A DNA stretch of 64,000 nucleotides, from the NCBI GenBank assembly GCA_965208885.1, contig CBDBPS010000002.1:1879538-1943537 (forward strand). The letters are read 5' to 3'. The notes under the pieces were generated by a model, which saw only the letters and a program-made list of their open reading frames with translations, made no database searches and was not told the origin of the DNA. Source of the stretch: Dehalococcoidia bacterium. Lineage in GTDB: Bacteria > Chloroflexota > Dehalococcoidia > UBA2979. Of this stretch, positions 37,738 through 63,672 are shown in pieces; the stretch's first letter is position 1; each line of letters begins with the position of its first letter. The translations under genes were made by a program, and so were the position numbers.

Positions 37738-37767
37738 GTGCGCAAGTGGTTCAGAGGAGGATCCGCG

Positions 37768-39528: not shown

Positions 39529-39612
39529 CCCGCGCGAAACTCGGAGACACACGTTGAGGGTCGACCAGTGAGGCAACACTAGCCCGGCGGCCCGCAGCTC
39601 AGGGTATGAACC

Positions 39613-40893: not shown

Positions 40894-40902
40894 GGGGCAG
40901 GC

Positions 40903-44176: not shown

Positions 44177-44236
44177 ATGAAGCTGCGGTCGTGCGAAAGG
44201 GGATGCGCCCGGATCTACGTCGTGCTGTCCTTCTGA
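44177..44236 (+). CDS. Conserved 19-codon small ORF, copy 2 (MKLRSCERGCARIYVVLSF), with a GGGAGGA SD.
   Basis: See copy 1. The element spans ~44149-44236. Confidence 0.5.
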   Translation: MKLRSCERGCARIYVVLSF

Positions 44237-44463
44237 GGCCCATCACTCGTGGCGCCGATGGTCATCCTCAAGTGGCTCCTGCAGCCACGCCGGAACGTCC
44301 CGCGCCCATGCACCACCCCTCAGGGCATCGACGTCCGCCTCTCGCTCGACGTAGTCGACTGAGTCGCTCAGTCGGTGAAACGGTGCGCGAAGGGCGGCGG
44401 ACGCGGGCGCGGACGGAGCAATTCAGTCAGACCAGCCAACACGCGTCGACCCACACCCAGCAA

Positions 44464-45885
44464 CTACATGATCAGGTGGTCGAATTTCTCCTTGAGGAAC
44501 CCGAACGTCTCATCCCTTTTCCGCGCTTCAACCAACTGCCGGAGGTCATCATCGTCCAAGAAAATGATGAATCCTCGGTCATCGCTCGCCGTGTCTCGGA
44601 GACGACTCTGGAGTAGCTCGCGGTTTTCCACGGTCCGGACCGCCAGAATCCCAAATTGTCCTCGGTTCGGTGAGAATCGGCCCGCAAGTTGGTCGACTTC
44701 CGGATTGGCAGGATCGGCGGAGTAGTTCTTGCATTCGATAAACACATGCTGACTCGGGTAGTTGTTCCCCAGCCATCGGAAGAAGCCTTGCTCGGCGATG
44801 TTCGCATAGGAAATGTCGATTCGCTTGCGGCCACTATGCAGTCGTTCCTCGATTCGAGGGAACGAGAGGGCTGGATAAAAAACCGCCGTGAGAAGGGCCT
44901 CCACTGAACGATGATATCGGTCCGAGCATTCCGGGCCGGGCGGGAGCGAAGTCACCGCCTGCAGTAGGGTGTCCCAGTCGGGCGTATCGACGCCGACATA
45001 AGCAGCCACCCCCTCGTGATTCAACGGAGGTGTGATTCGCCCTGCCTTGGACGCCCGATACGTCTCGAGAAGCTCTGGGGTTTCGAGGGTGAAATCTATC
45101 GCTACCTGCTTCCCCTGGCCATACTTCTTGATTAGGTCTGACTTCGTGACGTGCGGCACTTTGCCTACGAGTCGGACTAGTTCTGTGGTTGCCTCAAGCT
45201 CCCGTGCTTGCAACGCCGGGAGAATGAAGTGCCGATAGTACTCACCGACATCGAAGTCCATTCGTCGGCGAACAATCGACTTCGGTACCAATAGGAGTCG
45301 TCTGTTATCGACGATTGGCAGGTCCACGTAGTCCTCGAACCATTCCTCGGCCTGCGGATCCCACATGGGACCTGAGGCGACACCGCTAGTGACCGGGATC
45401 CCATACCATTCGGATGCTTCTTGTGTGTACCGGATGAGGGGTTGGCGGATGACGTTCGTTGCGATATCAGAAACGATGTCGCTCGCGACACCCGGTACCA
45501 TCAGGACAGTGTCCTCTAGATCTTGGAGAAGGCCGCTCTTGGCTGCCTCACTGTCCTTTAGGGCATTCCCCACATCCCGCGCGGACTGGCTCCCGAGTCC
45601 GCGTCCCCTCGCTTGACCCGTCGAGAACCCGAGATGGGTTTCGTTCGGCTCTCGCAACATTCGTAGCAGCCCGACCGCAGTCTCATCATCCCCCTCGTGT
45701 ATCGAGCGAAGAACTCGGCGAAAGAAGTCCTGTATCAGGGCGACGCACTCCTGGCCCCACGGTGTGTTGAAGCGGCGAAGTGCACGGGGATCCACGAAGA
45801 TCCGCACATCGGTGGCTAGATCAACGTCAACAAAATCAACCTCTGGCTGCGTCTTCGCTAGACCAAAGTGAGCAGTGACGCGCAA
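44464..45885 (-). CDS. Hypothetical 473-aa protein with a putative C-terminal PD-(D/E)xK nuclease motif.
   Basis: A TTG start is preceded by GAGGGG. The C-terminal RKRIDISYANIA ... HVFIECKNY fits a D...ExK restriction-endonuclease-like core. No other family is recognised. Confidence 0.45.
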   Translation of the reverse strand: MRVTAHFGLAKTQPEVDFVDVDLATDVRIFVDPRALRRFNTPWGQECVALIQDFFRRVLRSIHEGDDETAVGLLRMLREPNETHLGFSTGQARGRGLGSQSARDVGNALKDSEAAKSGLLQDLEDTVLMVPGVASDIVSDIATNVIRQPLIRYTQEASEWYGIPVTSGVASGPMWDPQAEEWFEDYVDLPIVDNRRLLLVPKSIVRRRMDFDVGEYYRHFILPALQARELEATTELVRLVGKVPHVTKSDLIKKYGQGKQVAIDFTLETPELLETYRASKAGRITPPLNHEGVAAYVGVDTPDWDTLLQAVTSLPPGPECSDRYHRSVEALLTAVFYPALSFPRIEERLHSGRKRIDISYANIAEQGFFRWLGNNYPSQHVFIECKNYSADPANPEVDQLAGRFSPNRGQFGILAVRTVENRELLQSRLRDTASDDRGFIIFLDDDDLRQLVEARKRDETFGFLKEKFDHLIM

Positions 45886-47156: not shown

Positions 47157-48386
47157 ATGACTACCTACACGCCGGCGTCGTCTCTTGGCTGGCTCGATCT
47201 CGATCCAGCGGCAAGTGAGCGAGTGACCACGCTGCTCCGCTCGCTCGACGAGCCCGGAACTCTCGACGTGCTGGGCTTGGGCACGATACGCGATGCGTTC
47301 TCGGCGATGCTCAGCCCCGGCACCTCGACCGTCCAGACCAGGCTCCGGTATTTCATCTTCTTGCCCTGGATACTGGGTCGCGTCGAAGCCCAGGGAGTCC
47401 CTCCAACCGATTTCACCCGCAGACTCCGTGAGGACGAGGCGCGACTGATCGACTGCCTGCGCCACCTGGGGCCAGGACAGGGGGTCATCGGCTACAACGC
47501 CGGCAGAGAACTCAGGCGCATGCCCAGCGAGATCTACTGGGTCGGTTTAGGCTCCTGGGGTCTGAGGCGGCATGACTTGAGCATCGCCGAGTACGGGCAA
47601 CGGGCTGCTGCTATCGGGAGGCTCCGGCCCGAGCGCGACGACGACGGCGAAGCGACTAGGCGGGTCGTATCAACGTGGGCTCCACTCCCTCAACCTCCAG
47701 CTGACTTCCTGCAGAGCGACATCACCTTCGAGCTTCGTGCCGAGGAGGCGCAGGTCCTTATCGACCACATCCGGCGGCACCACACGGGTACGCTACTGGC
47801 CGTCTTGTGCGGTATGCCAGCTGCTGTGAAGGATGCCGACTATCCGTGGGAAGTCCCGACGGGCGGGCTGCCGGATCACCTCGTTGAACTCCTTCACCAC
47901 GCCCGATGCTTCTCCGAGCTGACTCTTGGGCCGCAACTTGTCTACAACGTCCTCCTCGCGCGTAAGGCGAGCGAGGAGCTTGATTGGGAAACCCACGAGC
48001 TCGAAGAGGGACAACTCAGCCAGCTCGAAACCTGGGGCCAGCTGGTTGGAGACCGGCACGAGGAGTTGCAGTCGTGGGTCGAAGACCTCCCTGAGTTCTG
48101 GCACGTCGTAGCAGACCAGGGCGTCAGCGCACAAACCCAGGACTTCGTCGCAACTGTGGTTAGACGCGCCGTCGCCAATCCCCTCGGCTTCGCCGACGAT
48201 TCCGTCGTTCACAAGCGCATCCGCGACCGGGAGCTCAAGCTGAAGTCGAAGCGAGCTCGACTGGCCCACCGGACTGCGCTTGAGAACTGGAGCCAGGCAC
48301 CAGTCGGTGGTCAGTTCGACTATCGGTGGTCAATCACCAAGAGCTACCTCGCAGACATTGCCAAGGCGTTGGAGGAGGGAGCCTGA
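47157..48386 (+). CDS. Hypothetical 409-aa protein, first gene of a three-gene coupled operon.
   Basis: The ATG at 47157 begins MTTYTPASSLGWLDL. The stop overlaps the next ATG (TGATG). No known motif recognised. Confidence 0.5.
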   Translation: MTTYTPASSLGWLDLDPAASERVTTLLRSLDEPGTLDVLGLGTIRDAFSAMLSPGTSTVQTRLRYFIFLPWILGRVEAQGVPPTDFTRRLREDEARLIDCLRHLGPGQGVIGYNAGRELRRMPSEIYWVGLGSWGLRRHDLSIAEYGQRAAAIGRLRPERDDDGEATRRVVSTWAPLPQPPADFLQSDITFELRAEEAQVLIDHIRRHHTGTLLAVLCGMPAAVKDADYPWEVPTGGLPDHLVELLHHARCFSELTLGPQLVYNVLLARKASEELDWETHELEEGQLSQLETWGQLVGDRHEELQSWVEDLPEFWHVVADQGVSAQTQDFVATVVRRAVANPLGFADDSVVHKRIRDRELKLKSKRARLAHRTALENWSQAPVGGQFDYRWSITKSYLADIAKALEEGA

Positions 48387-50203
48387 TGCTCCAGCCCACA
48401 AATCGCCTCACACTGATTGACGCGCTGAGGCCCCCGGCCGCATTCCGTTTGGAGTCGGCCATGGCGGTGACATTCACGCTTGATCTACAGGCGCTCTTGG
48501 CGGCGCCCTTTGCGTTGGCGCACTCAGGGGCCGAAGGAATCGTTTCCGATGGAAGCCAATACGAACCCATCGAGTTGCTTCACGCACTTCGGTCCAACGC
48601 AAACAGAATCAGCGTGTTCAACCAGGTCGGCGAGATCGCCTTGCCGCCCTCACGGCGAGTGTTCGCCTTCCTCGAGCAGGCGGTCGTGCCCGTTCGCGCT
48701 CCGCTCGGCGGTATCGTCCACCCCAAGATCTGGGTGCTTCGATACGAGACCGCTGCTGAGCCACCGGTGGGTCAGCAACGGGAGCGGCGTCTAAGGGTGC
48801 TCATCTCCAGCCGGAATCTCACGTTCGATCCGAGCTGGGACACTGTGGTCCGTCTAGACGAAGCAACCGATGAGAAGGCTGCATCGCTGGAACCTGTCGG
48901 GGAACTGTTTGAGGGGCTGCTCGGCACCGCGGTTGGCACCGTCACCACGGTCCACCAGGACCGCGTGAAGTTGCTCTCCGCCGCGCTAGAGTCTACGAGT
49001 TTCGCCTTACCCGCCGGTGTAGAGGAGCTGCGAGCGCATGTAATGGGCCTGACCTCCACAACTTCACCACTTCCGGCCACCGCCGAAAGGTCATTGATCG
49101 TCTCGCCATTCGTCAGCGATGACTTCTTTACCAGAGTCCATCCGTCGCCGGTAAATGAGCTCGTGAGCAGGCCGGAACAGCTCGACCACCTTGAGCAGGC
49201 GACGCTCGATAAGATGCAGACCCAACCTTACGCTTTTGACGACGTTAGCTTGGCCGCCCTCGAAGGAGGGGAGGAACAAACATCGCTCTATGGTCCTGGC
49301 CGGCCTCTGGTAGGGCTACACGCCAAGATATTCGCCTTCGAGAGTGATGGTCGAGCCCGCCTGTTCCTTGGGTCGGCCAACGCCACCGGTGCGGCGTTCA
49401 GCAGAAATATCGAAGTTTTGCTAGAACTCGTCGGCTCCAAAGAGATGCTCGGCATCGCCCGGCTCTTCGATGGCAACGGCGACGAGCCGGGACTCCGCGA
49501 CTTGTTCGTACCATATCACCGGCGAGAAGATCGCGATCAAGAGAACGGAACGGCAACGGTTGACAGCGCTAGACGCGCCATCGCTCAACTTCACTTCGAG
49601 GGCGTTGTCGAGGAGAGCGGGACCGGATGGGCGGTGACTTACCGGTCGCGGGAACCGGTGAGCGCTCCGGATGGCACGGTGATCCGCTGCTGGCCACTGG
49701 CATCTGCTGGGAACCGGCGACGGGTTGCTCTGGATGAACGGCTGGATGTTCGATTCGAGACCACCCTGGAAGCCATCAGTGGGTTCCTCGCGTTCGAGAT
49801 CACGCACAGAGATGGCGAGGACGCACGGACCGGATTCGTCGTCCCGGTCCCACTCGCCGGAATCCCAGAGAATCGTGACCGGATCCTGTTGCGCTCTCTT
49901 GTGGGTAACGCCGAGCGCTTTTTTCGGTACTTGCTGGCGATACTGGACGACGATCCGGATCAGATGAGTCTGATCGATGCTCTGGAAACCGACGGTATGG
50001 ACTCTGTAGCCTCTGGAAGCGGATTTACGAACTTGCCGGTGTTGGAGAAGTTGCTCAGAACCATGCGACGAGAACCGACGAAGCTTGCCGGACTCCATCC
50101 ACTCGTCTCTGACCTGGCTGCCGATGACGCGCTTCCGTCAGGTTTCGCTGAACTCTGGATGGCTATCTACGACGAGGCACACCGACGCGGTCCAGCACAG
50201 TGA
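48386..50203 (+). CDS. Phospholipase D-superfamily (two HKD motifs) putative nuclease.
   Basis: A GGAGGAGGGA SD precedes the start. HKD motif 1 reads VHPKIWVLRYE...ISSRNLT. HKD motif 2 reads LHAKIFAFESDGRARLFLGSANATGAAF. The stop overlaps the GTG of the helicase gene (GTGA). Confidence 0.7.
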   Translation: MLQPTNRLTLIDALRPPAAFRLESAMAVTFTLDLQALLAAPFALAHSGAEGIVSDGSQYEPIELLHALRSNANRISVFNQVGEIALPPSRRVFAFLEQAVVPVRAPLGGIVHPKIWVLRYETAAEPPVGQQRERRLRVLISSRNLTFDPSWDTVVRLDEATDEKAASLEPVGELFEGLLGTAVGTVTTVHQDRVKLLSAALESTSFALPAGVEELRAHVMGLTSTTSPLPATAERSLIVSPFVSDDFFTRVHPSPVNELVSRPEQLDHLEQATLDKMQTQPYAFDDVSLAALEGGEEQTSLYGPGRPLVGLHAKIFAFESDGRARLFLGSANATGAAFSRNIEVLLELVGSKEMLGIARLFDGNGDEPGLRDLFVPYHRREDRDQENGTATVDSARRAIAQLHFEGVVEESGTGWAVTYRSREPVSAPDGTVIRCWPLASAGNRRRVALDERLDVRFETTLEAISGFLAFEITHRDGEDARTGFVVPVPLAGIPENRDRILLRSLVGNAERFFRYLLAILDDDPDQMSLIDALETDGMDSVASGSGFTNLPVLEKLLRTMRREPTKLAGLHPLVSDLAADDALPSGFAELWMAIYDEAHRRGPAQ

Positions 50204-53200
50204 CGGGACTGCGCATCGATGTAGGGGCGGTCCTAGCTGACCTGAAGGACTTCCAGAGGCGAACCGCCCGTTGGGCGTTCCAGCGGATGTTCGATGAGCA
50301 GGATCCTGCAATCCGATTCCTGGTCGCTGACGAGGTCGGGCTGGGGAAAACGCATGTCGCCCGAGGAATAGTTGCTCTGGCTATCGACCACCTTCGGCGG
50401 ACGGGCGACACACGATATGACATTGTCTACGTCTGCTCCAACGCGGCGATCGCGCGCCAGAACCTTCGCAAACTTGTGCCAGAAGGAATCGAGCCGCTCG
50501 AGGACATCGAACGACTCACCATGCTGCCTCTCGCAAAACTGAATAGCGGTGACGACCAGCATATGGGTGTAAACCTTCTCGCGATCACACCAGGGACGTC
50601 GCTGCAGTTCGGTCGTAGCACGGGCCGGTTCCGCGAGCGCTGCATAGCGTACGCGTTCTTGCGGGCCTGTTGGAGTGCGGAAGTGATGAACGCACCGGCT
50701 CGTCGGATCTTCTGGCACGGCGTCACGGCCAACGACCCCGACGAGCGGCTGCGCTCGGAGGAGCGACGGTACCGGTCGGAAATAAGGGAGTCACTCGGAG
50801 AGTTCGAAGCAATGCTGGAAGAGGTCGAACAGTCGCGCCGCGCCGACGGACGACCGGCGCTACGTGAACTCTTTGAGGGTCTGGCCCACGGATTGGCGTG
50901 GAAGCGCACGTTCCCAGACGACTTGTACGAAGACCGCAGAGAATTGATTGGTGAGGTTCGCCGCATCATGGCGAGAGTTGGCATCGCCAAGCTCCAACCG
51001 GATCTCGTGATATTGGACGAGTTCCAACGGTACAAGGACGTGCTCCGAATGGCTCCCAAGAACTTCGCTGTGGAGTTGGGGCAACGCTTGCTGAACCACA
51101 CGGACCCGCAGACTGGGCGCGCGACGCGAACGCTGCTTCTGTCCGCTACCCCATACCGCCTGTACACGACTGGCGATCGGGCAGGTGACGACCACTACGA
51201 AGACTTCTTTGATACTTGCTCGTTCCTTCTCAGGGATCCCGCGAGGGTTAACTGGCTGCGGGATCAGTTTCGTGCCCTCCGCCTGGCACTCACGTCCAAG
51301 GAGTCACTCTCAAACGCCGAGGGGGTCTGCCGCGCCATCGGCACCGAGCTGAGCAGCGTAATGGCACGAACGGAGCGGCTGGCGGCTACGCCAGACCGTG
51401 ACGGGATGCTTCACGAACCGGACACTCCAGTGGAGGTGAAACCGCTTGACCTGCGCGCCTATCGTCGCCTCGGGAATCTTGCGGAGGCGGTCGACCACCA
51501 CGAACCGACCGAATACTGGAAGTCCGCGCCGTATCTCGTCAACTTCATGGAGCGGTACAAGCTCAAGGAGGCCGTGGTGCAGTCCGCAGGCGACGGCCGA
51601 TTCAAGGACGGAGAAGGGCTTAGTCCAGGTCCTGGACTGCTGAACTGGGACGATGTCGAGGCCTACGAGGACGTTGATCCCCAGAACGGGCGACTTCGCT
51701 GGCTGCTCAGCGACTTGGATCGCCACCGTGCATTCGAATTGCTCTGGATACCTCCCTCGATGCGGTACTACGACACTGGATCGGTGTACGAAACCCCGGA
51801 AGCAGCCAGCTTTACGAAGCGGCTGATCTTCTCCGGGTGGAGAGTCGTCCCGAAGGTGGTATCCTCGCTCGTCAGCTTCGAGGCCGAACGCCGCGCCTTC
51901 GCCGGACGCAATCACGACTACACGGCAGACTATCGGCGGCGTGGTGGCCAACGTCTCACCTTCCGTACGAGCGAGCGCACTGCCGGCCAACTCCGACACG
52001 GAGAATCGGCCAGAGTCCGCCGAGCAGCCGGAATGACCACGTTTCTCTTGATCTGGCCGAGTCCGAGTCTTGCGGAGCTGGGAGACCCCCGACCGCTAGT
52101 GTCCGGCGCATACCGCCCTGTGTCTGAGATGCTCGCCGACGTGGCGGGTCGAATCTCGGACGCCATCGAACCGCTGGTTCAGAGCGCACCAACTGATGGC
52201 GCCGTCGACCAGAGGTGGTACTGGGCCGCGCCCCTGCACCTCGACCGAGAGGCTTACCTGTCGGTAACGGATCGCTTGCTTTCCCAGGGTGGCCTCATAC
52301 AGTCGGGAGGGGACGAATCCGATCGTGGACTCCGCGCCCACGTTGCCGAGGCAAATTCCATGCTATCGCGCGGTGCCCGGGCTCTCGGTCGCCCACCCGA
52401 TGACCTCAGCGAGGTTCTCGCTGAGTTGGCAATCGGAGGGCCGGCGCAATGCGCGCTGCGGGCGATCAGTTCAGTCACTCAGTTGCCGATCGCTGACGAA
52501 TCCACCGTGTTGAACGCCGCGCGGGTCGGTGCCGCGTTCAGGAGATTCTTCAACGCCCCGGAAGTCACGGGGCTCATAGTAGGTGGGCGTCCAGGGGAAC
52601 CGGACGTCGACGAAGGCGCAGGCCGCTACTGGCGCGATGTCATTCGACACTCGATCGGCGGCAATCTGCAGGCCGTTCTCGATGAACACACCCATGTGGT
52701 CCGTGACTGGCTCGGATATCTTCGTTTGGGCGACGATGACCGGCGCGCGCAGGCGGCCAACGACATCGCTCTGACCGTCGCGGACGCCTTGGACCTCCGC
52801 ACTTCATCGTTTCGCGTGGACATCCCCCGTAGTGGGCAAGGCGAACGCAACATGGATCTGGAAGAACGTCGGATGCGGACCCGTTTCGCCGTTTCATTTG
52901 GCAATCAAACACTCGACGAGGGCGGCGAGGCCCGAATCGAATCTGTGTACAGAGCGTTCAACTCGCCGTTCTGGCCCTTCGTCCTCGCCTCCACTTCTAT
53001 CGGACAGGAGGGGTTGGACTTCCACCTCTGGTGTCACGCCGTCGTCCACTGGAACCTTCCTACCAACCCAGTCGACCTGGAGCAGCGCGAGGGGCGCGTT
53101 CACAGGTACAAGGGTCACGCCGTCCGCCGCAACATCGCCGCGACCTTGGCGCCGGACCTGCTTGAAGGTGCGCTGGCTGGTGTCGCCGATCCTTGGAGTC

Positions 53201-53487
53201 AGCTATTCGCCATGGCAGTGCCCACTAGGCCAGAGGCCGCCGGCGAAATGGTGCCTTACTGGGTGTTCCCCAGGGGTCCGGCGCGGATCGAACGCCACGT
53301 GCCGGTCATGCCCTTCAGCCGAGATGCAGCGACTCTGCCACGGTTGCGCAAGTCACTCGCTGCATATCGCCTTGCGTTCGGCCAACCCCGGCAGGCCGAG
53401 TTGATTGAGTTTCTCGGGGCCGAGCGCTCCGACAGTGACCTGCTGCAACTGGCCTCACGGCTCCGCATTGAACTCTCACCCCCCTGA
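50200..53487 (+). CDS. SNF2-like superfamily-2 helicase/ATPase (1095 aa).
   Basis: Motif I reads FLVADEVGLGKTHVA, compared with SNF2 ILADEMGLGKT. Motif II reads LVILDEFQRYK. Motifs V-VI read SIGQEGLDFHLWCHAVVHWNLPTNPVDLEQREGRVHRYKGH. Confidence 0.75.
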   Translation: MTGLRIDVGAVLADLKDFQRRTARWAFQRMFDEQDPAIRFLVADEVGLGKTHVARGIVALAIDHLRRTGDTRYDIVYVCSNAAIARQNLRKLVPEGIEPLEDIERLTMLPLAKLNSGDDQHMGVNLLAITPGTSLQFGRSTGRFRERCIAYAFLRACWSAEVMNAPARRIFWHGVTANDPDERLRSEERRYRSEIRESLGEFEAMLEEVEQSRRADGRPALRELFEGLAHGLAWKRTFPDDLYEDRRELIGEVRRIMARVGIAKLQPDLVILDEFQRYKDVLRMAPKNFAVELGQRLLNHTDPQTGRATRTLLLSATPYRLYTTGDRAGDDHYEDFFDTCSFLLRDPARVNWLRDQFRALRLALTSKESLSNAEGVCRAIGTELSSVMARTERLAATPDRDGMLHEPDTPVEVKPLDLRAYRRLGNLAEAVDHHEPTEYWKSAPYLVNFMERYKLKEAVVQSAGDGRFKDGEGLSPGPGLLNWDDVEAYEDVDPQNGRLRWLLSDLDRHRAFELLWIPPSMRYYDTGSVYETPEAASFTKRLIFSGWRVVPKVVSSLVSFEAERRAFAGRNHDYTADYRRRGGQRLTFRTSERTAGQLRHGESARVRRAAGMTTFLLIWPSPSLAELGDPRPLVSGAYRPVSEMLADVAGRISDAIEPLVQSAPTDGAVDQRWYWAAPLHLDREAYLSVTDRLLSQGGLIQSGGDESDRGLRAHVAEANSMLSRGARALGRPPDDLSEVLAELAIGGPAQCALRAISSVTQLPIADESTVLNAARVGAAFRRFFNAPEVTGLIVGGRPGEPDVDEGAGRYWRDVIRHSIGGNLQAVLDEHTHVVRDWLGYLRLGDDDRRAQAANDIALTVADALDLRTSSFRVDIPRSGQGERNMDLEERRMRTRFAVSFGNQTLDEGGEARIESVYRAFNSPFWPFVLASTSIGQEGLDFHLWCHAVVHWNLPTNPVDLEQREGRVHRYKGHAVRRNIAATLAPDLLEGALAGVADPWSQLFAMAVPTRPEAAGEMVPYWVFPRGPARIERHVPVMPFSRDAATLPRLRKSLAAYRLAFGQPRQAELIEFLGAERSDSDLLQLASRLRIELSPP

Positions 53488-54959: not shown

Positions 54960-56120
54960 GTGAGTCTGCCGAAACGCCCCGCAACGCTCGCCGAACTCCG
55001 GGAGAGTCTCACCGCCGGGGTTCTGCAGGAAGGTCGGCATCTCGAGTTCAAGCGCGAACTCCCGTCGAACAAGGACATCGCGCGGCAGTGCGCGGCACTG
55101 GCGGTCCAGGGCGGCGTTCTCGTGTTCGGTGTAGATGAGTCAGAAGCCGGACTTGTCGTCGCCCCGATCGAGTATGCGGGCGTCCGTGAGAAAGTCGGGC
55201 AAATAGCCCGGGACAGGTCGGTGCCACCCATCGAGTTGGACTCGTCGGTGCTGCATTCCGACGAGGCGGGCAGGGGCGTCGTTTGGATCGAGATTCCGCC
55301 ATCCCCGCACATGCTCCACCAGGTCGACGGGACGTACTACACGCGCGACGACGCGCGGACAAGGCCAATGTCAGACGCCGAGGTCGCTGATCGAATGGAG
55401 CTGCGCAAGGGGCGTCCGCGCTTGCTCGAGCAGGCACTCGAGCAAGCGCTGCGGAGACCGGAACCGGCAGCTGCGTCGCTGCATGCAAGGACCTGTATTG
55501 TCGCGCGGCCGGTCGGTGCCGCCTCCGACTTGCTCTTCGCAAAGACCAGGACGGCGGATGAGTGGGATGACTTCGCCTTCGAGCTCATGGTCCCGACAGG
55601 CCCGATCGTGATGCCCGCGCCGGTACGGGCCTGGGGCTTCATCAGCCATCAAGCCACGCCAGAGGGACCGAGTTGGGGCTCGCAGGCGATCATGTCGTAT
55701 CGCGACATCGCGTTCGAGAAGAACGGCGCACTCGCGCACCTCTCGTACAGCCGGGGGTTCGATCGCCGGAATGCGGATACGGTTCAGCCGTGGCTCGCGC
55801 TACAGGCTTGCATCGAAGTCATCGGGATCATCGGCGCCATCCAAGAGCGCACCAAGGAGGCCATGCCTTGGGACATCGCGATGTCGATCCGCGACGTGCG
55901 GGGTCACCTGGGGACATCGAGGCCGTGGTCTGGTCGCGGCCCGGTTCAGCAGCGGTTCCGGCCGACATTCCCGCGCGACGACTACACTGAGTATGCGCTT
56001 GGCGTGACTGGGCGACGGATAGAAGCGGACGGCGTTGCGCTTGTCGAGGAGCTGGCCGGTCAGTTCGTCTTGGAGTGTGGGCTGGACTTCGACACCGAAT
56101 ACCCTGGGCGAAGGACATAA
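54960..56120 (+). CDS. AlbA_2/Schlafen-like domain protein (putative DNA-binding/regulatory ATP-binding protein).
   Basis: GRHLEFKRELPSNKD...GGVLVFGV resembles the AlbA_2 (divergent AAA / Schlafen) signature E..E..LEFK...GG.l..GV. Confidence 0.4.
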   Translation: MSLPKRPATLAELRESLTAGVLQEGRHLEFKRELPSNKDIARQCAALAVQGGVLVFGVDESEAGLVVAPIEYAGVREKVGQIARDRSVPPIELDSSVLHSDEAGRGVVWIEIPPSPHMLHQVDGTYYTRDDARTRPMSDAEVADRMELRKGRPRLLEQALEQALRRPEPAAASLHARTCIVARPVGAASDLLFAKTRTADEWDDFAFELMVPTGPIVMPAPVRAWGFISHQATPEGPSWGSQAIMSYRDIAFEKNGALAHLSYSRGFDRRNADTVQPWLALQACIEVIGIIGAIQERTKEAMPWDIAMSIRDVRGHLGTSRPWSGRGPVQQRFRPTFPRDDYTEYALGVTGRRIEADGVALVEELAGQFVLECGLDFDTEYPGRRT

Positions 56121-56492
56121 GCAGGCTCAGACCAGAGGCCCACCCCGGACACACAAGATTCCTGCGGGACGGCTCGGAGGCAGGAGTGGCTCTCCTACGC
56201 ACCTCCGTAGTACCACGCGACCGGACCCCGGCCCGCGAGTTCGCCGCGCACATACAACGCCGGTATGCGCTCGGAGCGCCAGGCCCGGCCAGCATTAGAG
56301 AGGCCTCGGCACGAGGGGTTGAGGCTACGGGTAGCATTGGTCGTTCTGGATGCGGTAGTCCTCGGGTCGCCTCGTCTCCTGCGCCCCGAGCTCTCGAGGC
56401 GCGATCCCCGCGCGACCCGCGGGCGACCTAAGCTCCGATAGTACGGCTCCATATAGGAGGTTAGGTGGTAACATTCAGCAAGAGAGGTTGAT

Positions 56493-57764
56493 ATGGCTGG
56501 CTACGAGCGCCGACAGTGGCAGGGGAGCCCGACGGGGCAAACCTACCGCGACCGGCGGCCCTGCAACTACGACACATACCTGCCGGATCCCCTCGCCGGC
56601 CGCGACTTCGCGCTCTCGGGCGAGGTCACTGCGGATGTCGCCGCGGCCGAGGCCGCGCTCGTGCGCCTCGACGAATCGGCCACCGCGCTCGCCGGCGCCC
56701 GCTCCCTCGCCCGACTGATCCTGCGAGCCGAATCGGTCGCGTCGTCTCGCATCGAAGGATTGGTGGTCGGGGGTCGGCGGCTGCTCCGTGCCGATGCGGC
56801 GCGCCGTCTCGGCAATGACCCGCGGGATCGTACGGCCGAGGAGGTGCTGGCCAACATCGACGCAATGTCGATGGGCGTCGAGACCGTGGGGCCGGGCGAC
56901 CCGATTGAGCCGGCTGTCATGCTGGAGATGCACCGCCTGCTGCTCGCCGGCACGCCGCTTGAGGAGCACGGCGGGCGACTGCGAGACCAGCAGAACTGGA
57001 TCGGAGGCTCCGGGTACAACCCGTGCGCCGCGGCGTTCGTACCGCCACCCCCCGAGATCGTGGAGGACCTGTTCGATGACCTCTGCGCCTTCGCGAGCGC
57101 CGATGCGTGGCCACCGCTGGTCCAGGCAGCGATCACACACGCGCAGTTCGAGACCATTCACCCGTTTGTGGACGGCAACGGGCGTGTGGGCCGTGCCCTG
57201 ATCCATCTGGTGCTGCGGCGCCGCGGCCTCGGGCTCCGCGTCCAGCCGCCCATCTCGCTGGTGCTGGCGACATGGTCTTCGGCCTACGTGGCCGGCCTGA
57301 CCGCGACGCGCTACGTCGGGCCGTCCGATAGCGCCGAGGCGCGCGACGGCTTCGACCGCTGGGTGGAGCTCGCCGCCGAAGCCTGCCTGCGTGCCGCGGG
57401 AGACGCTGCGCGCTTCGAGGAGCGGGTGCGGGCGCTCCAGGCGAAATGGATCGAGCGAGCCGGACCCGCGCGGCGTGACTCGGCGCTCCGCCTGCTCATC
57501 GACACGCTCCCGGAGGCACCCGTCCTGACCACGTCCGTCGCCGCGGATCTCATCGGCCGCTCGCTGCGGGCGACGACCCAGGCGATGGACCAGCTGGTGC
57601 GCGCGGGGATCCTGGTCCAGATCACGGTTGGCCGCCGCAACCGCGCGTTCGAGGCGCCGGAGCTCATCGAGGCGTTCACGGCATTCGAGCGAGGCCTCGC
57701 GAGCCCGGAGGGCAACACGGCCATCGCGGATCCCTCACGCCCGGTGCCCCAGCGGCCGAACTGA
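56493..57764 (+). CDS. Fic/Doc-family protein (AMPylase-type, with a C-terminal winged helix).
   Basis: The canonical Fic motif HPFVDGNGRVGRAL is present. The ATG is preceded by AGAGAGG. Confidence 0.85.
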   Translation: MAGYERRQWQGSPTGQTYRDRRPCNYDTYLPDPLAGRDFALSGEVTADVAAAEAALVRLDESATALAGARSLARLILRAESVASSRIEGLVVGGRRLLRADAARRLGNDPRDRTAEEVLANIDAMSMGVETVGPGDPIEPAVMLEMHRLLLAGTPLEEHGGRLRDQQNWIGGSGYNPCAAAFVPPPPEIVEDLFDDLCAFASADAWPPLVQAAITHAQFETIHPFVDGNGRVGRALIHLVLRRRGLGLRVQPPISLVLATWSSAYVAGLTATRYVGPSDSAEARDGFDRWVELAAEACLRAAGDAARFEERVRALQAKWIERAGPARRDSALRLLIDTLPEAPVLTTSVAADLIGRSLRATTQAMDQLVRAGILVQITVGRRNRAFEAPELIEAFTAFERGLASPEGNTAIADPSRPVPQRPN

Positions 57765-58144: not shown

Positions 58145-61100
58145 TCAACACTCAGATTCGTTATGGGTTTGCGCCGAGGCGCGCTCGTTTCCTTGGGCAT
58201 CGCTTGAGATCCCTGCCTGGGTCCTGATCTCGTCCAACGAAGCGATCCGGCGCCACACGTTTGAGTAGCCCTCATACGCGGTGCTGAGCCACTCGGGGCG
58301 ATCCACCGAGTAGTCAGCGAACCACACGTCCCGCTCGCCCCAGACGATCCAGACGACCTCATAGTCGTGCGCAGCGCAGTAGTCTCGGATCAGGTCCTCC
58401 CGCAAGTAGAGGAGGTGACCCGCCTCCTTGAAGTCCGACGGTGGCGCGAGCGTCACTGAGGCTCTGCGGCCTTCGGGGTCGCACCAATCTAGGCTCGCCG
58501 GCATCACACGGAGGTCCAAAGTCTCGGCGAAAGTAACCGCTGGTACCGGGTAACCTCCAGCCTCGTTCGTCACCGAGTGATAGGACTCCCATCCATAGTA
58601 ATGAGCTGGCCGCTCGATGACGACCTCATTCTCCTCTGTGGCACCAAGGGCTTCGGTGTAGATTTCCTGAAGCCTGTCACCGGGCAGGCCGAGTCGTGCA
58701 CAGTGACTCCACGTCATTTCTCCAGCGAAGACATAGTGGGCCTCGGGCAGACGGAGGGCCCAGAAACTTCCAGGGTGCTGTTGGGAAGAGAGAACCTCCC
58801 TGAGTTGATGCTCGCGACCGCGTTCGACGAGAACCGCCCTCAAGAAGCCATGGATCCTCCGTTGCGATTCGATGTCCTCCTGCCGGAGGTATCCGGACAG
58901 AGCCACCCAAGGACCGTCAGATCCATCGAGCGAGTGGGGTCGCAGTAACTCATCTGAGATATCCACCCTGCCATTGATTACCCAACTCTCCAAGTCCTCG
59001 GACTCTTCTGACAGGAACTCGGGGATCTCCAGCGTGAGCGCTGGAGGCTTCGCTGGGAAGGATGGGTCAATATCGACGTCTGTAAGGTGTACCTCACCAT
59101 CCCTTATTGGCGAGCGGCCTTCGGCAATGAGCCTGCCTGCCGCCTCAAAGAACCCGACCCAGCCGTATTTCTTCTGGTACAGCTCGATGTGGCCGTCGCG
59201 ACCACGCCGATACTCACGGTCATCCCTCATACGCCGATCAACTTCAGCAAACCGCTCGGTGCTCCAACCCAGGTCCCAGACTCGGGCCCGAATCCAGGAT
59301 GACACCTCCTCATACTCGGGGTGGTCGAATTGGTAATTGCCTCGGTGCGGCACTAGCCTTCCCACCGTGTAGTTCCGAAAATCGAGCCCGTAGACGAGAT
59401 CACGGGGCGAGTTCCTGGGATCGTCACGAGTAATGGACTCTAGCTTGTCGGCACGACTGAAGCGCCACTCGCCTGAATGGGACCCGAGCGCGTCAGGATA
59501 GTAGCGGCGAGTTATGCCGGCGATTCCTTCGACGTAGTGTCGTATCAGCCAGTGATCCGTCGGATGGGTAGCATCCTCGGCACAGAATGCCTTCCAGAGA
59601 CCCTCGATGAAATCGTCCAGCTCTTGGCCGAACTCCCGTTGCTCTCCGGGAGCCGCCATCATGACGCCGAACGAGGCGGCGAGCATGCGTTCGGGGACGT
59701 ACGGGTCGTTCGTATTCAGGCTGGACAGCGTAAGTGCGAAGAGCGCTCCAGGCTCTCCCCGCCCGTACCAGTACATAGCCAGGGTAGCGACATCTCGGAG
59801 ATCGCGTACTGTGCTCGTCAAAAGCCACTTGAGCCAGAGGGCGCACAACCGATCTCCGTCGGTGCGCTCTGCACTGGACTCCCAACTCTCGATGAGTTCT
59901 TGAAGATCCTTGAAGTGCTCCGCGTCGGAGTTCCGGATCCACTCAGTCCAACGCAGATCGCGGTCGGCGACGGACAAGCCCGAGAGTAGGTCATCGACGA
60001 ACTCGGCGTTGAGAGGATGATTGCCTGCGTCTCGGACCTCGCGGAGGCGGTATAGCAGGTCTCGCCTTCGAATCCGGGCTCGACCGTCAGATTGATGCCG
60101 GAGGGAGAGTCGGGCGATTTCAGCAACCGTTCGCTCGTCCAAGAACTGACCTTCAAGGTCCGCGGAGTCGACGATTGCTTCTTCGCGAAGATCCCCACCT
60201 ACGAGTTCCCAGAACTGCATCCCGGGGTACCTTCGAGGAACCAGTCCGGCGAATGCCTCCCGAATGTCCGGCGCTAGAGGGTGGGCTTCCTGCCTGTGCC
60301 GTCGCTGCAAGCGCTCACGCAGTGGATGCGGGATGAGTCGTGTGCCGAACCTCCGGATAAGTGAAGTGAATGAGCCCCCTCCGCCCTGTTTGGCCCCCAA
60401 GCGTGCCGCAGTCTTCTTTTCACGAACCCACGGGGCGAAATCACCACGGCCCCGTGACCTGACCAGCGCGTCCGCGATTAGGAAGCCGGCGAACCCGTCG
60501 AACAGGATCACCGTTCGAGCATCGCTGCCAGAGTCGAGGTCCACACCGAGGACGCCCTCGTCACGTAGCGCCCGCGCGAGGCTATAGGGCCAGTCCTCAG
60601 CGTTTTCGCCTATCAAGTTGCGAATCTCGTCGAATGGCATTGCTCGACGGTTCGTGTTCCAAAGCGCCAAAGCGATCGTGTCTAGCGTCTTGAGGATGTC
60701 TGGTTCGTAGCGACGTACCCCGCTTCGTGTGTTCGCGATCCGCCTTACAGTATTCCTTCGGAATTCAATGAATGCGGCCGTGAGCGAGGCTGGCACTCGG
60801 TCAGGAGCTACTCGGGAATCGCGCGTTGGGTTCGTTGCTTCGCAGAAGATTCTGAGGAATAGTGGGTCACTAAACTGCTCCATGGGGAGGCGTACGTTAC
60901 CGCGATCGATCTTGTATTCGTCAAAGTAGGCTTCGACCGCATCCTCCCTCAGAGTGCGACTGAAGCCCTGGACTTCCAACTTCGCAAAACCATCTGGCAG
61001 CGCGATCTGAGCCACCGCCGGCCTGAGTGTCACAATCAGGACGACGTGATGAAGACCTCGTAGTATCGGTTCGATTCGAGACAACTCCTCCTTCCAGCTG

Positions 61101-62359
61101 GCCGGATCCTCCGATTCGTTTAGGCCGTCAACGACGATCGGCAACCGGATTCCGGCTCGAGCTCCCGCAGCCTCGACTGCCTCTAGAAGTTGCACAAACG
61201 ACTCGGCTCGAATGCCATCGAGCCGAGCCAGGAGTTCGTTCAGAGTCCCTCGACGCGAGAGTGGCCAGGCCTCGAGGTAGATCCCGCACGAAGAACTGTC
61301 GCCAGCCGCGGTCACGGCCGCCCCTAGGTGAGTCTTCCCGGCATGAGCGGGCCCGACCACCGCCATGCTGGTGATGGACAGGTACTGCTGCAGTCGATGA
61401 AAGAGAACTCCCGAATCGTGCTGGCGAGCCAGTCCGGCTTGCACGGCAAAAGCACAATGTTCGCGCCCCCGCCGGAGTTGCCGTGCCAGCCGTCGTCCCT
61501 CCGCCCGAGTCAGCCGAGGAGTCCACTCAGAGGAAGTGATCTGGATCGCCCCCGCGATGCTGCGCTGGGTAAGCGCGCTGGCGATGTCGATGAAGTTCTC
61601 GCGTAGATCACGGAGGTCATCGGCGAGCAGCGAGACCGCTTCGCGGTTATCCCCTTCCAACTCGGTGGTAGCCCCACCCAGCTGATCGAGCGACACTTCT
61701 AGTCCCCTGATCTGCTCCTCAACCTCGGGCCAGTACTCTGGTTCACCGAGGACCTTGCGAATCTCACCCTCGGCTTCCACCCGAATATGGACGCCAGGCA
61801 TCCATCGGTTGCGAATCGGCTCGATGGACTGCTCGCGCAGCGTTTGCAGACGGTCTGGGGTAAGGATGAGATCGCCGAAGTACGTGCTCCGTAGGATTTC
61901 CGCTTCGCCCACAAGATGTGCGTCAAGGTCGTCTGCAGTCCAAAGATGCAATTGCATAGACGTTTCGATCTCGCGGAACCACTTCTGATCTGTGGGTGTG
62001 AGCGGGCGCCTAGTCCACAGGACCCAGTCGGTGATTCCGGGAACGTACTCTGCTGTCTTGCGTATTGCCTCGAGTATTTCCGTTCTTCGTCGAGTGCCGA
62101 TCTGGTCTCCACTAGGCAGGTCGTACCACCGACATTGCCAACCCCACCAGCGCCCCGGCTCGCCGAGCGTCGTCGAAGACCGAGCCACCTTCATGTGGAA
62201 CTCGACGCCCGGCTGTTGAGCGACATATCGAAGGCTCCCGAGTGATCCGAAGCTCCGTCGGACCACGGCTCCGCAGAGCCGCTCCCAATTCGCGGTGACG
62301 GCCCCCGGGAGATTCGTGAACGCCTCCCAGTCCAGTTCAGGCATGGGCCACTTCTCCAA
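58145..62359 (-). CDS. Large NACHT-like STAND NTPase (1404 aa) with an unknown N-terminal ~300-aa domain and a long C-terminal region.
   Basis: Walker A reads MAVVGPAHAGKTHLGAAV. The NACHT-type Walker B reads LPIVVDGLNESED. The N-terminal region WERLCGAVVRRSFG...GVEFHMKV...WGWQCRWYD may be Mrr-like PD-(D/E)xK (uncertain). Confidence 0.65.
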   Translation of the reverse strand: MEKWPMPELDWEAFTNLPGAVTANWERLCGAVVRRSFGSLGSLRYVAQQPGVEFHMKVARSSTTLGEPGRWWGWQCRWYDLPSGDQIGTRRRTEILEAIRKTAEYVPGITDWVLWTRRPLTPTDQKWFREIETSMQLHLWTADDLDAHLVGEAEILRSTYFGDLILTPDRLQTLREQSIEPIRNRWMPGVHIRVEAEGEIRKVLGEPEYWPEVEEQIRGLEVSLDQLGGATTELEGDNREAVSLLADDLRDLRENFIDIASALTQRSIAGAIQITSSEWTPRLTRAEGRRLARQLRRGREHCAFAVQAGLARQHDSGVLFHRLQQYLSITSMAVVGPAHAGKTHLGAAVTAAGDSSSCGIYLEAWPLSRRGTLNELLARLDGIRAESFVQLLEAVEAAGARAGIRLPIVVDGLNESEDPASWKEELSRIEPILRGLHHVVLIVTLRPAVAQIALPDGFAKLEVQGFSRTLREDAVEAYFDEYKIDRGNVRLPMEQFSDPLFLRIFCEATNPTRDSRVAPDRVPASLTAAFIEFRRNTVRRIANTRSGVRRYEPDILKTLDTIALALWNTNRRAMPFDEIRNLIGENAEDWPYSLARALRDEGVLGVDLDSGSDARTVILFDGFAGFLIADALVRSRGRGDFAPWVREKKTAARLGAKQGGGGSFTSLIRRFGTRLIPHPLRERLQRRHRQEAHPLAPDIREAFAGLVPRRYPGMQFWELVGGDLREEAIVDSADLEGQFLDERTVAEIARLSLRHQSDGRARIRRRDLLYRLREVRDAGNHPLNAEFVDDLLSGLSVADRDLRWTEWIRNSDAEHFKDLQELIESWESSAERTDGDRLCALWLKWLLTSTVRDLRDVATLAMYWYGRGEPGALFALTLSSLNTNDPYVPERMLAASFGVMMAAPGEQREFGQELDDFIEGLWKAFCAEDATHPTDHWLIRHYVEGIAGITRRYYPDALGSHSGEWRFSRADKLESITRDDPRNSPRDLVYGLDFRNYTVGRLVPHRGNYQFDHPEYEEVSSWIRARVWDLGWSTERFAEVDRRMRDDREYRRGRDGHIELYQKKYGWVGFFEAAGRLIAEGRSPIRDGEVHLTDVDIDPSFPAKPPALTLEIPEFLSEESEDLESWVINGRVDISDELLRPHSLDGSDGPWVALSGYLRQEDIESQRRIHGFLRAVLVERGREHQLREVLSSQQHPGSFWALRLPEAHYVFAGEMTWSHCARLGLPGDRLQEIYTEALGATEENEVVIERPAHYYGWESYHSVTNEAGGYPVPAVTFAETLDLRVMPASLDWCDPEGRRASVTLAPPSDFKEAGHLLYLREDLIRDYCAAHDYEVVWIVWGERDVWFADYSVDRPEWLSTAYEGYSNVWRRIASLDEIRTQAGISSDAQGNERASAQTHNESEC

Positions 62360-62365
62360 GTGTCA

Positions 62366-62773
62366 CTACGGTCGGGGTGGGCCCTCGTCCGGGTAATGAT
62401 GCGCTGAGTACACCTCCACGCGGGCGGGACTGTCGATCATGAATCTCAGGAAGCCGCTCACGGTCGACTCATCAGTTGATATCCGCAGTTCATCGTCCAC
62501 GCGTCGCACTGTATGTTCCGAGCTGAGGCTCTCGATGTCCTCAGGGGAGAAGTTGTACAAGCCAAGTTTCCTGAGGTTCTCGACCAACGGATCATTGAGG
62601 TACCACGCCATCGGGTTCTCGTGGAACCTGTCGTAGTCATAATTCTCGACGACGAGCTCACAGAGCTCTTCCAGCTGCCTCCTCACGGACTCAGCCTTCT
62701 CAGCAGTTTCGAAGTGGCCAATCATCCTCAAGTTGGCCGAGTGCTCCGAGCCGAACCCTGTCCAGACCTTCAT
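62366..62773 (-). CDS. Hypothetical ~135-aa protein between the radical SAM and NTPase genes. The likely start is the ATG overlapping the upstream stop (ATGA).
   Basis: MKVWTGFGSEHSANLRMIGHFETAEK... The ORF is open from 62872, but the ATG at ~62773 overlaps the radical SAM stop. It ends 6 nt before the NTPase start. Confidence 0.45.
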   Translation of the reverse strand: MKVWTGFGSEHSANLRMIGHFETAEKAESVRRQLEELCELVVENYDYDRFHENPMAWYLNDPLVENLRKLGLYNFSPEDIESLSSEHTVRRVDDELRISTDESTVSGFLRFMIDSPARVEVYSAHHYPDEGPPRP

Positions 62774-63672
62774 GCTGGTTCTCCTGTTTGGCTGCGAAGC
62801 TCGTCCAGCGCAGCCCGGACCGACGCTCGCACGTGGACACCACTCGCTGAGAACGAGGACGATCGAAGCCAACTCGATGCGTCGATGTGGGCGTAGGCAC
62901 TGGCACGGTTCCCCCCACGAAACGGATCTGCGATGGGAATGCCGTCCACCGGCGCTGCCTCAGATATCGCTAGGCGGTACTGACCGTTGTTCTCGATCCA
63001 GCGAGTAAGAGCCTCCGAACTGGCAGAGTCCATGCCCCCGATGCCTGCGACTGCACGCTCGGGCAGCAGCAGCATCTCGAACGCCCCGTGTCCAAATGCT
63101 ATCTCAGCGGCGGCGTCAAGGTCCTGGATCGTCTCGGCGTTGATGACGTAGTTCACCCCGAATGGCGCGGTCGCGCGCAAGAGCCGTAGCTTATCGAGGA
63201 ATGCAGCGAAGCTGCGCCCACGGATGCGCTCGTACGTCGCGCCTACGCCATCCATGGATACGCGCACGAAGTGGACAGCCCCCTCGATCTTCTCGGCCAA
63301 TTCCTCGGTGACGCGGTGGGCGTGAGTAGTGAAGGAGACAGCCAACTGCGTCTCCGCCGCGACGCGGCCAGTCAGCAGCGCGAAGTGCGGGTGCAGAGTT
63401 GGTTCGCCGCCGCCGAAACCGACTCCGAGGCACCCGCCCGCGTCCAGTTCCGTCGCCCAAGCGACGACGGAATCGACATCCAGACGAGCGGGGTGCTTGG
63501 GGGCATAGCAGAATCGGCACTGTAGATCACAAGCGTTCGTCAGCGCGATCGATACGAATCTCGGTGCCCAGTCATAGTCGTCCCGATGTACTTCGACTTC
63601 GTCCAGCAGGACATTGAGCCCGGTCGCACGGTCGAAGAAGTGGACACCGCTTTGGTCTCGTCTGACCTTCAT
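62770..63672 (-). CDS. Radical SAM enzyme (~300 aa) with viperin-like motifs.
   Basis: The CxxxCxxC motif reads ALTNACDLQCRFCYAPK. The SAM motif reads GFGGGEPTL. VRVSMDGVGATYERIRGR and FGVNYVINAE parallel viperin LAISCDSFDEEVNVLIGR and FKINSVINRFN. Confidence 0.7.
   Translation of the reverse strand: MKVRRDQSGVHFFDRATGLNVLLDEVEVHRDDYDWAPRFVSIALTNACDLQCRFCYAPKHPARLDVDSVVAWATELDAGGCLGVGFGGGEPTLHPHFALLTGRVAAETQLAVSFTTHAHRVTEELAEKIEGAVHFVRVSMDGVGATYERIRGRSFAAFLDKLRLLRATAPFGVNYVINAETIQDLDAAAEIAFGHGAFEMLLLPERAVAGIGGMDSASSEALTRWIENNGQYRLAISEAAPVDGIPIADPFRGGNRASAYAHIDASSWLRSSSFSASGVHVRASVRAALDELRSQTGEPA

Follow-up and report, generated by a model that had tools for sequence, protein, structure and literature searches.

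Results

A probable KpAvs2-type operon in a defence island

Three genes on the minus strand of the window (the whole 64-kb stretch of DNA analysed here) very probably constitute an anti-phage system of the KpAvs2 type, with the order avap1-avap2-avs2; we put the probability of this assignment at about 0.87. A sequence-only reading of the same DNA had regarded the combination of a radical SAM enzyme with a STAND NTPase as an unusual pairing. The same operon was published in 2024 from Klebsiella pneumoniae S_15PV, encoding Avap1 (radical SAM), Avap2 (DUF6375) and Avs2 (Bechon et al., Nat Commun 2024; PMC11564622), and the window operon is a divergent member of that system, not a new pairing of a viperin with a NACHT protein. 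Because the radical SAM-DUF6375-Avs2 operon had already been described and tested, our analysis adds little as discovery.

The family identities obtained with HMMs are far beyond chance. The radical SAM protein scored 66.4 bits against Pfam Radical_SAM (PF04055; cut-off 29.5), and the small protein matched DUF6375 (PF19902) over its full length with 126.4 bits (cut-off 27.5; E = 1.5e-36). For the large protein, the PADLOC Avs2 model PDLC02164 gave 323 bits (E = 1.1e-96) and five further PADLOC Avs2 models matched, with no other Avs type among the PADLOC matches. The PADLOC Avs2 models PDLC02162, 02163 and 02165 aligned at residues ~757-946, and EcAvs2 (PDB 9O4E; E = 3e-19) aligned to residues 779-904; no Pfam model matched the C-terminal region. 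The NCBIfam Avs2 model was also matched (E = 1e-62), at 212 bits and thus under its equivalog cut-off of 1000. The description of this protein as NACHT-like, made earlier, is apt at the level of motifs but does not hold by Pfam: NACHT (PF05729) did not match the full-length protein at E up to 0.1, and gave 19.7 bits for the isolated NTPase region, under the cut-off of 26.7. The protein shares with bNACHT proteins the STAND NTPase class used in anti-phage sensing and a Walker B of the DG-L-(D/N)-E type, and differs from them in that all of its significant defence-HMM matches are to Avs2.

The three ORFs proposed by the sequence-only reading are present as listed in Table 1, together with every motif it quoted and the ATGA in which the avap2 ATG and the avap1 TGA share 4 nt. 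The radical SAM ORF contains NACDLQCRFCY (CxxxCxxC), FGGGEPTL, VRVSMDGVGATYERIRGR and FGVNYVINAE. Its placement of the NTPase 6 nt after the small gene is correct for the ORF that begins with TTG, 6 nt past the avap2 TAG, but not for the probable start. Residues 1-5 of the window Avs2 fall in a gap in 92% of homologues, so that the alignment begins at residue 6, and the ATG at 62344 is preceded by a GGAG at a distance of 9 nt; translation therefore probably begins at this ATG, giving 1399 aa and a gap of 21 nt after avap2. In the 1404-aa numbering, GPAHAGKTH occupies residues 336-344 and VVDGLNESED residues 409-418; from the start at 62344 the Walker A lysine thus becomes K337, a number identical to that in KpAvs2.

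Table 1. Features of the avap1-avap2-avs2 locus (positions in the window)
Feature	Position	Strand	Remarks
avap1-like gene, 300-aa radical SAM protein	62770..63672	minus	CxxxCxxC (C48/C52/C55), GGGEPT SAM-binding motif; no SPASM/twitch Cys cluster
avap2-like gene, 135-aa DUF6375 protein	62366..62773	minus	start overlaps avap1 stop as ATGA
avs2 gene, Avs2-type STAND NTPase	58145..62359	minus	1399 aa from ATG at 62344 more likely than 1404 aa from TTG at 62359
Avs2 N-terminal effector domain	61955..62344	minus	from the family alignment; Mrr-type nuclease label from literature on KpAvs2
Avs2 QCR motif	62129..62137	minus	Arg at the site of KpAvs2 lysine K71
Avs2 Walker A, GPAHAGKTH	61328..61354	minus	Lys invariant in 64/64 sequences
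Avs2 Walker B region, VVDGLNESED	61106..61135	minus	D-G-L-N-E invariant in 64/64; weak Pfam NACHT match
Avs2 31-aa arginine-rich insertion, GGGSFTSLIRRFGTRLIPHPLRERLQRRHRQ	60290..60382	minus	window copy only
Avs2 C-terminal sensor region, ~700 aa	58148..60259	minus	homologous to C-terminal regions of other Avs2 proteins

The operon lies within a defence island that also holds Azaca and SoFic. Its flanks hold the Azaca genes ZacA, ZacB and ZacC, a Schlafen/AlbA_2 protein, SoFic, AbiEii and a serine recombinase, and this company, along with the PADLOC identification of Avs2, agrees with the defence role suggested from the sequence. The GC content of the operon is 60%, compared with 68% in the first 35 kb of the window, and no tRNA genes were found in the 64 kb. 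A promoter and terminator scan yielded nothing informative. The three genes would be produced as one coupled unit within a horizontally acquired defence island.

The gene trio is conserved across phyla

We compared 80 genome loci, retrieved with Avap1 as query, and 80 metagenome loci, retrieved with Avap2. Avap2 adjoins Avap1 in 79 of the 80 genome loci, and a full-length Avs2 homologue follows avap2 in 74 of the 75 that could be evaluated; among the metagenome loci the trio is complete in 71 of 72 evaluable cases, and Avap1 accompanies Avap2 in all 74 evaluable cases, leaving no Avap2 without Avap1. The 4-nt overlap between avap1 and avap2 is retained in 65 of 79 loci. The trio, for which the sequence-only reading had wanted synteny checked in other genomes, is thus syntenic there, and the counts rule out chance adjacency of the three genes. 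The earlier proposal of an overlap-coupled operon is upheld: avap1-avap2-avs2 is supported as a single translationally coupled three-gene module, and this module is conserved across phyla.

The order avap1-avap2-avs2, all on one strand, is found in Enterobacteriaceae as well, and hosts of the trio include Acidobacteriota, Actinomycetota, Chloroflexota, Planctomycetota, Spirochaetia and Bacteroidota, with one trio on an IMG/VR viral contig. The closest genome homologue comes from an acidobacterial MAG, and the host of the window is a high-GC bacterium. As a proxy for KpAvs2 we used the operon of a Pseudocitrobacter (L043), whose DNA is 95-96% identical to copies in 26 E. coli genomes that are annotated there as radical SAM, DUF6375 and hypothetical. 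This operon carries K71 in QCK (numbered from MPEVNW) and K337 in GEGKS. In full-length alignments its proteins are 51% (Avap1), 35% (Avap2) and 33% (Avs2) identical to those of the window, a measure of how far the window operon has diverged from the enterobacterial one.

Departures from the trio are few. Three loci (L007, L083 and L085) hold the Avap1-Avap2 pair without Avs2. One Avs2-less locus may be a product of decay, since a transposase fragment sits downstream. In L007 the pair stands beside an AAA protein and a DUF6414 protein, an arrangement that is a singleton; the Avap2 of this locus has no close relative, the nearest (52% identity) belonging to a normal trio.

Avs2 has an arginine at the nuclease lysine and a unique insertion

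In an alignment of 64 Avs2 family members, the window included, E26 and E53 of the effector domain are invariant, and the domain also carries the motif GW(Q/S)C(K/R)W. The site equivalent to K71 is occupied by Lys in 47 sequences and by Arg in 17, among them the window copy. None of the 63 homologues in the alignment, not even the closest (L001), has the 31-aa insertion of the window protein. These two features, QCR in place of QCK and an insertion without counterpart, might together with the loss of Cys101 from Avap1 (Thr in the window, Cys in 96% of Avap1 proteins) mark the window copy as a disabled or decaying relic. We think this very unlikely. The three ORFs are all intact and of full length, and the remaining invariant residues are all present. 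The Arg variant is common to 16 other full-length homologues of several phyla and is therefore a maintained trait of a subclade. Genuine decay looks different, as in a locus (L025) where an internal deletion has fused Avap2 to the C-terminus of Avs2.

An Mrr-like fold of the N-terminal domain, which the sequence-only reading had suspected, has support in the literature on KpAvs2 but was not detected by HMM in the window family. Pfam gave no match to this fold for the isolated domain (E threshold 10) or for 16 family members, a family profile run against all PDB sequences yielded no signal for it, and hhalign of the domain against E. coli Mrr gave no signal. The Mrr-type assignment therefore rests on the published HHpred result for the KpAvs2 N-terminal domain (PMC11564622).

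Avap1 is closer to peptide maturases than to viperins

The CxxxCxxC motif is invariant in the Avap1 family. Against the curated viperin model NF038283, Avap1 of the window reached 46.5 bits (cut-off 180) over residues 41-155 only, and a mycofactocin maturase model scored higher; the top NCBIfam matches are peptide maturases. The Avap1 family profile gave 63.5 bits for SkfB, 46.9 for PqqE and 31-37 for viperins, and the best matches in both sequence and fold were SkfB and SuiB (also PqqE), with viperin close behind. We therefore reject Avap1 as a prokaryotic viperin, the sequence-only reading having described it as viperin-like: by curated criteria it is not one, and its chemistry is very probably not viperin-type nucleotide dehydration.

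Avap1 also differs from the maturases with structures (SkfB, 6EFN; SuiB, 5V1Q; PqqE, 6C8V), being ~100 residues shorter and without their auxiliary Fe-S Cys motif. Conserved cysteines outside CxxxCxxC are C81 (95%), column 101 (96%; Thr in the window) and column 248 (48%), and in the window Avap1 no Cys follows C81 and no Cys motif for an auxiliary Fe-S cluster was found. With respect to an RRE domain, the AF2 model of Avap1 places only a 35-residue three-stranded sheet before the core; R4, G9, D14, G18, N20 and L22 of this strongly conserved segment are invariant in alignment A1. The locus holds no RiPP precursor gene, unless Avap2 serves as one.

Discussion

The Klebsiella operon provides the framework for reading the locus in the window. 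Its defence is abortive infection brought about by the nuclease at the N-terminus of Avs2, DNA smearing is seen upon infection, and the nuclease mutant K71A, the Walker A mutant K337A and a C-terminal deletion all lose defence (PMC11564622). Avap2 co-immunoprecipitates with KpAvs2. Avap1 is required against T2 and dispensable against SECphi18, where defence still works with Avap2 in its absence and needs the nuclease lysine; about 5% of Avs2 homologues have Avap1-Avap2 beside them (PMC11564622). The window operon resembles this one in three matching Pfam/PADLOC identities with identical order and strand, in an Avs2 laid out as N-terminal effector, helical linker, STAND NTPase and long C-terminal sensor, and in its location, both systems lying within a defence island. 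It differs in the degree of protein identity given above, in the Arg at the K71 equivalent and in the 31-aa insertion past the NTPase domain.

The steps demonstrated for the Klebsiella homologue can be carried over to the window copy by homology. The phage protein bound by the long C-terminal region of Avs2 would be the large terminase or else a small protein specific to the phage. The STAND NTPase would then oligomerise, a step dependent on the lysine of Walker A, and the N-terminal nuclease domain would cut DNA non-specifically and abort the infection. As a constitutive partner required for defence, Avap2 would bind the helical linker that joins the nuclease domain to the NTPase, and Avap1 would be an auxiliary enzyme broadening the phage range. 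EcAvs2 is a single-gene system that works alone (Gao et al. 2022; bioRxiv 10.64898/2026.04.30.721860). It too is a STAND NTPase, its C-terminal sensor detects the large terminase of phages, and it is homologous to the window Avs2. However, its N-terminal effector is of another type, whereas for the window Avs2 a nuclease-type N-terminus and a need for Avap2 are presumed.

The sequence-only reading had proposed that the NTPase senses infection and licenses the production of a chain-terminating analogue by Avap1 as a viperin-like nucleotide dehydratase, or the reverse. Avap1 does share with pVip a radical SAM core with CxxxCxxC and an anti-phage role, both belong to one broad structural subgroup with MoaA and SPASM enzymes, and the PADLOC pVip models match at E = 4e-16. 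That alignment nevertheless covers no more than the generic radical SAM core (positions 2-116 of the 257 in the profile), and the scores against NF038283 and the family profile favour the maturases. Avap1 is nearly always found with DUF6375 and Avs2, whereas pVip is usually solitary or kinase-paired. In the KpAvs2 operon, the nuclease is the effector shown, pVip-type modified nucleotides (ddh-nucleotides) were sought and none detected, the AlphaFold2 model of Avap1 has no NTP site, and defence against SECphi18 is independent of Avap1 and dependent on the nuclease lysine (PMC11564622). We regard a nucleotide analogue as scarcely credible.

Our guess is that the substrate of Avap1 is a protein partner (either Avap2 or Avs2) and not a free nucleotide. 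One form of this idea, unlikely in our estimation, is that Avap1 modifies the invariant tail at the N-terminus of Avap2, or else part of Avs2, and so tunes the firing of Avs2 against particular phages. Avap2 has an invariant N-terminal MKxWxGFGSEHSAN, which begins at Met1 across the whole family, and a C-terminal VEVYSAH; residues 1-14 are nearly invariant yet have a pLDDT of ~45 in the predicted model. The nearness of Avap1 to RiPP maturases fits such a role, as do the constancy of the pair (79/80 genome and 74/74 evaluable metagenome loci), the 4-nt overlap in 65/79 loci and the survival of the pair without Avs2 in three loci. Against it, Avap1 lacks the auxiliary-cluster Cys motif and apparently an RRE domain as well, Avap2 works against SECphi18 without Avap1 (PMC11564622), and Avs2-less loci are rare, one perhaps reflecting decay and another (L007) being a singleton. 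Fusions of DUF6375 were limited to low-complexity tails and one tandem duplication. A little less likely again is the stronger version, in which Avap1-Avap2 is a self-contained enzyme-substrate pair: Avap1 would modify the flexible Avap2 tail covalently, and the modified Avap2 would set the activation threshold or trigger range of Avs2. Other NTPase partners might also be served by such a pair, as the single locus with AAA and DUF6414 (L007) would illustrate.

The assignment to the KpAvs2-type system, which we prefer, extends the distribution of the trio far past Enterobacteriaceae, with a gene order and a 4-nt avap1/avap2 overlap that are almost invariant. The survey also provides handles on what Avap1 and Avap2 do, namely the Arg subclade at the 'essential' nuclease lysine, the invariant and apparently unstructured N-terminus of Avap2, and the structural neighbours of Avap1, which are peptide maturases and then viperin. 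If modification of the Avap2 tail by Avap1 does govern Avs2, the trio would contain a post-translational switch, operated by a radical SAM enzyme, on a bacterial NLR-like receptor.

The operon belongs to a published defence system

The minus-strand operon at 58145-63672 is a new and divergent representative of the Avap1-Avap2-Avs2 system. In Klebsiella pneumoniae, for which that system was described, the operon encodes the radical SAM protein Avap1, the DUF6375 protein Avap2 and KpAvs2 (Bechon et al., Nat Commun 2024, PMC11564622). The sequence-only reading had proposed a novel viperin-NACHT coupling, which is superseded by the publication of this operon type in 2024. Its description of the layout was borne out by an ORF check: three tightly packed ORFs, the quoted motifs, the ATGA overlap and the 6-nt gap are all present.

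Features of the defence island and the operon
Feature	Coordinates	Strand	Remarks
Serine recombinase	35344-36582		island appears to begin here
DUF6791+ThiF (E1-like) protein	37940-39166
AbiEii toxin	40903-42111	-
PDC-M36A candidate defence protein	44464-45885	-
Azaca system	47157-53487	+	complete, overlapping gene ends
ZacA	47157-48386	+	346 bits
ZacB	48326-50203	+	472 bits
ZacC	50200-53487	+	1020 bits
Schlafen/AlbA_2-domain protein	54960-56120	+
SoFic-type Fic protein	56493-57764	+	PADLOC SoFic, 235 bits
avs2 ORF	TTG 6 nt past avap2 stop, to 58145	-	1404 codons; GPAHAGKTH, residues 336-344; VVDGLNESED, residues 409-418
avap2	start 62773, stop TAG 62366	-	ATG shares 3 bases with avap1 TGA (ATGA)
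avap1	63672-62770	-	300 aa; NACDLQCRFCY, FGGGEPTL, VRVSMDGVGATYERIRGR, FGVNYVINAE

The avap1 product matches Pfam Radical_SAM (66 bits) and the avap2 product DUF6375/PF19902 (126 bits, E 1.5e-36), while the full avs2 product has no significant Pfam match. In PADLOC it hits six different Avs2 models, the best at E 1.1e-96, and none for another Avs type; it also matches the NCBIfam Avs2 equivalog (E 1e-62, under its strict cut-off), and the one related PDB entry, 9O4E, is that of the EcAvs2-terminase complex. Because of these matches, and because the isolated NTPase region scores just 19.7 bits with Pfam NACHT (cut-off 26.7), the protein is a STAND NTPase of the Avs2 family; the earlier NACHT-like label holds for its motifs, but not for the family. 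Homologues align only from residue 6 onward (residues 1-5 are gapped in 92%) and a GGAG lies 9 nt 5´ of the ATG at 62344, which together point to this ATG as the probable true start of avs2.

The window from ~35.3 kb to its end is a defence island, in which a serine recombinase, DUF6791-ThiF, AbiEii, PDC-M36A, Azaca, Schlafen/AlbA_2 and SoFic genes precede the operon, the last two (54960-57764) convergent with it. GC drops from ~0.68 to ~0.60-0.64 at 35344-45885, and the island is lower in GC than the four giant genes in the first 35 kb. Their ORFs (6-35021; 2160, 2604, 3503 and 1984 aa) presumably encode huge surface proteins; the latter three, which were scanned with Pfam, contain subtilase, cadherin-like, fn3, Calx-beta, PPDK_N and arylsulfotransferase domains.

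Conservation of the operon and the link to KpAvs2

Conservation of the operon is striking, and the three genes are indeed syntenic in other genomes. A genome-wide search seeded with an Avap1 alignment found 80 loci spread over many phyla, and tblastn with the window proteins placed Avap2 directly downstream of Avap1 in 79 of them, with a 4-nt overlap at the junction in 65/79. Of the 75 loci that extend far enough downstream, 74 continue with an Avs2 homologue. All three genes were found in 71/72 evaluable metagenome loci in a reciprocal scan with Avap2, which revealed no Avap2 without Avap1. The 80th genome locus (L025, 10894-12673) is decayed: an internal deletion has evidently joined the first 31 Avap2 residues to the last 550 of Avs2.

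The link to KpAvs2 was built through homologues, with L043 (Pseudocitrobacter) as the enterobacterial representative. Among 5426 complete E. coli genomes, 26 carry copies that match the L043 operon at 95-96% DNA identity, with the three genes annotated as 'radical SAM protein', 'DUF6375 family protein' and 'hypothetical protein'. When L043 Avs2 is numbered from its MPEVNW start, K71 falls in GWQCKW and K337 in GEGKS, the residues mutated in KpAvs2. Window Avap1, Avap2 and Avs2 align with L043 over their full length at 51%, 35% and 33% identity; the closest genome homologue, from an acidobacterial MAG (L001), shows 65%, 60% and ~57%.

KpAvs2 combines an N-terminal Mrr-type nuclease with a STAND NTPase and a C-terminal sensor. 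In E. coli, its operon confers protection through abortive infection, in which DNA is degraded non-specifically; defence is abolished alike by K71A (nuclease), K337A (Walker A) and C-terminal deletion (PMC11564622). By homology, the Avs2 nuclease would be the effector in the window operon. Avap2, found beside ~5% of Avs2 homologues and in most of these cases together with Avap1, physically binds KpAvs2 and is required for defence; Avap1 is needed against T2 and dispensable against SECphi18 (PMC11564622). Literature to mid-2026 adds terminase-recognition detail, and nothing on Avap1 or Avap2.

The window copy has Arg (QCR, 62129-62137, -) at the equivalent of KpAvs2 K71. GWQCRW in place of GWQCKW occurs in 17/64 Avs2 proteins, all full-length and in one subclade: the window protein and those of L001, L005, L008, L037, L039, L044, L047, L048, L051, L056, L057, L061, L066, L069, L075 and L079. 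A 31-aa Arg-rich insertion, GGGSFTSLIRRFGTRLIPHPLRERLQRRHRQ (60290-60382, -), lies between the NTPase and sensor regions and is unique to the window copy, being missing from all 63 aligned homologues. Since its other invariant residues are all retained, we regard the copy as probably functional.

Variant loci

The avap1-avap2 pair is intact, with Avs2 absent downstream, at L083 (3998-8206), L084 and L085 (5088-7417). At L083, three coupled genes of unassigned function (247, 195 and 225 aa) precede the pair, while downstream come a DDE transposase fragment and, beyond it, T4SS genes; at L085, a 308-aa gene of unassigned function lies upstream. In an actinobacterial MAG (L007, 10001-14013, equal to L169), the next genes encode an AAA ATPase resembling IetA and a DUF6414 protein, with no Avs2. 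This Avap2 lacks close relatives, so the arrangement is apparently a singleton. L167 and L168 (5338-11439) have four genes, a PF12281 (NTP_transf_8) gene 5´ of the trio overlapping the avap1 start by 4 nt. Some copies may ride on prophages, because one complete operon (L082, 7099-12393) lies on a 30.6-kb IMG/VR contig classified as viral.

Avap1 as viperin or peptide maturase

Avap1 had been read as viperin-like, an assignment that we rejected on every curated measure. Window Avap1 scores 46.5 bits with the NCBIfam viperin model (cut-off 180), over residues 41-155 only, which is less than with the mycofactocin maturase model; PADLOC pVip matches stop at position 116 of a 257-position profile; and the family profile, run against the PDB, scores SkfB (63.5 bits) and PqqE (46.9) higher than viperins (31-37). 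The supposedly viperin-like blocks are conserved among Avap1 proteins and are presumably generic to the whole MoaA/viperin/SPASM subgroup. These profile scores place Avap1 in that broad neighbourhood, marginally nearest to the peptide maturases; it lacks their auxiliary-cluster cysteines and, apparently, their RRE domain. Beyond CxxxCxxC, conserved family cysteines occur at C81 (95%), column 101 (96%) and column 248 (48%); in place of the last two, window Avap1 has Thr (63370-63372, -) and Ala. The KpAvs2 operon yielded no detectable pVip-type modified nucleotides, and no NTP site was seen in an AF2 model of its Avap1 (PMC11564622).

Among 1.84 billion proteins, Avap2 counts just 368 representatives at 50% identity, a small family whose members, of ~130 aa, are nearly always standalone, with a profile that begins at Met1. 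Nearly invariant are residues 1-14 (MKxWxGFGSEHSAN), T100-D-E and V-E-V-Y-S-A-H. The AF2 model has a ferredoxin-like core and an invariant N-terminal tail with pLDDT ~45, so that the most conserved segment (residues 1-14; 62732-62773, -) is also that of lowest confidence. A protein-directed role for Avap1, rather than nucleotide chemistry, is mildly favoured by four features together: the two genes are strictly paired and translationally coupled, Avap1 has a maturase-like fold, and the flexible tail of Avap2 is conserved.
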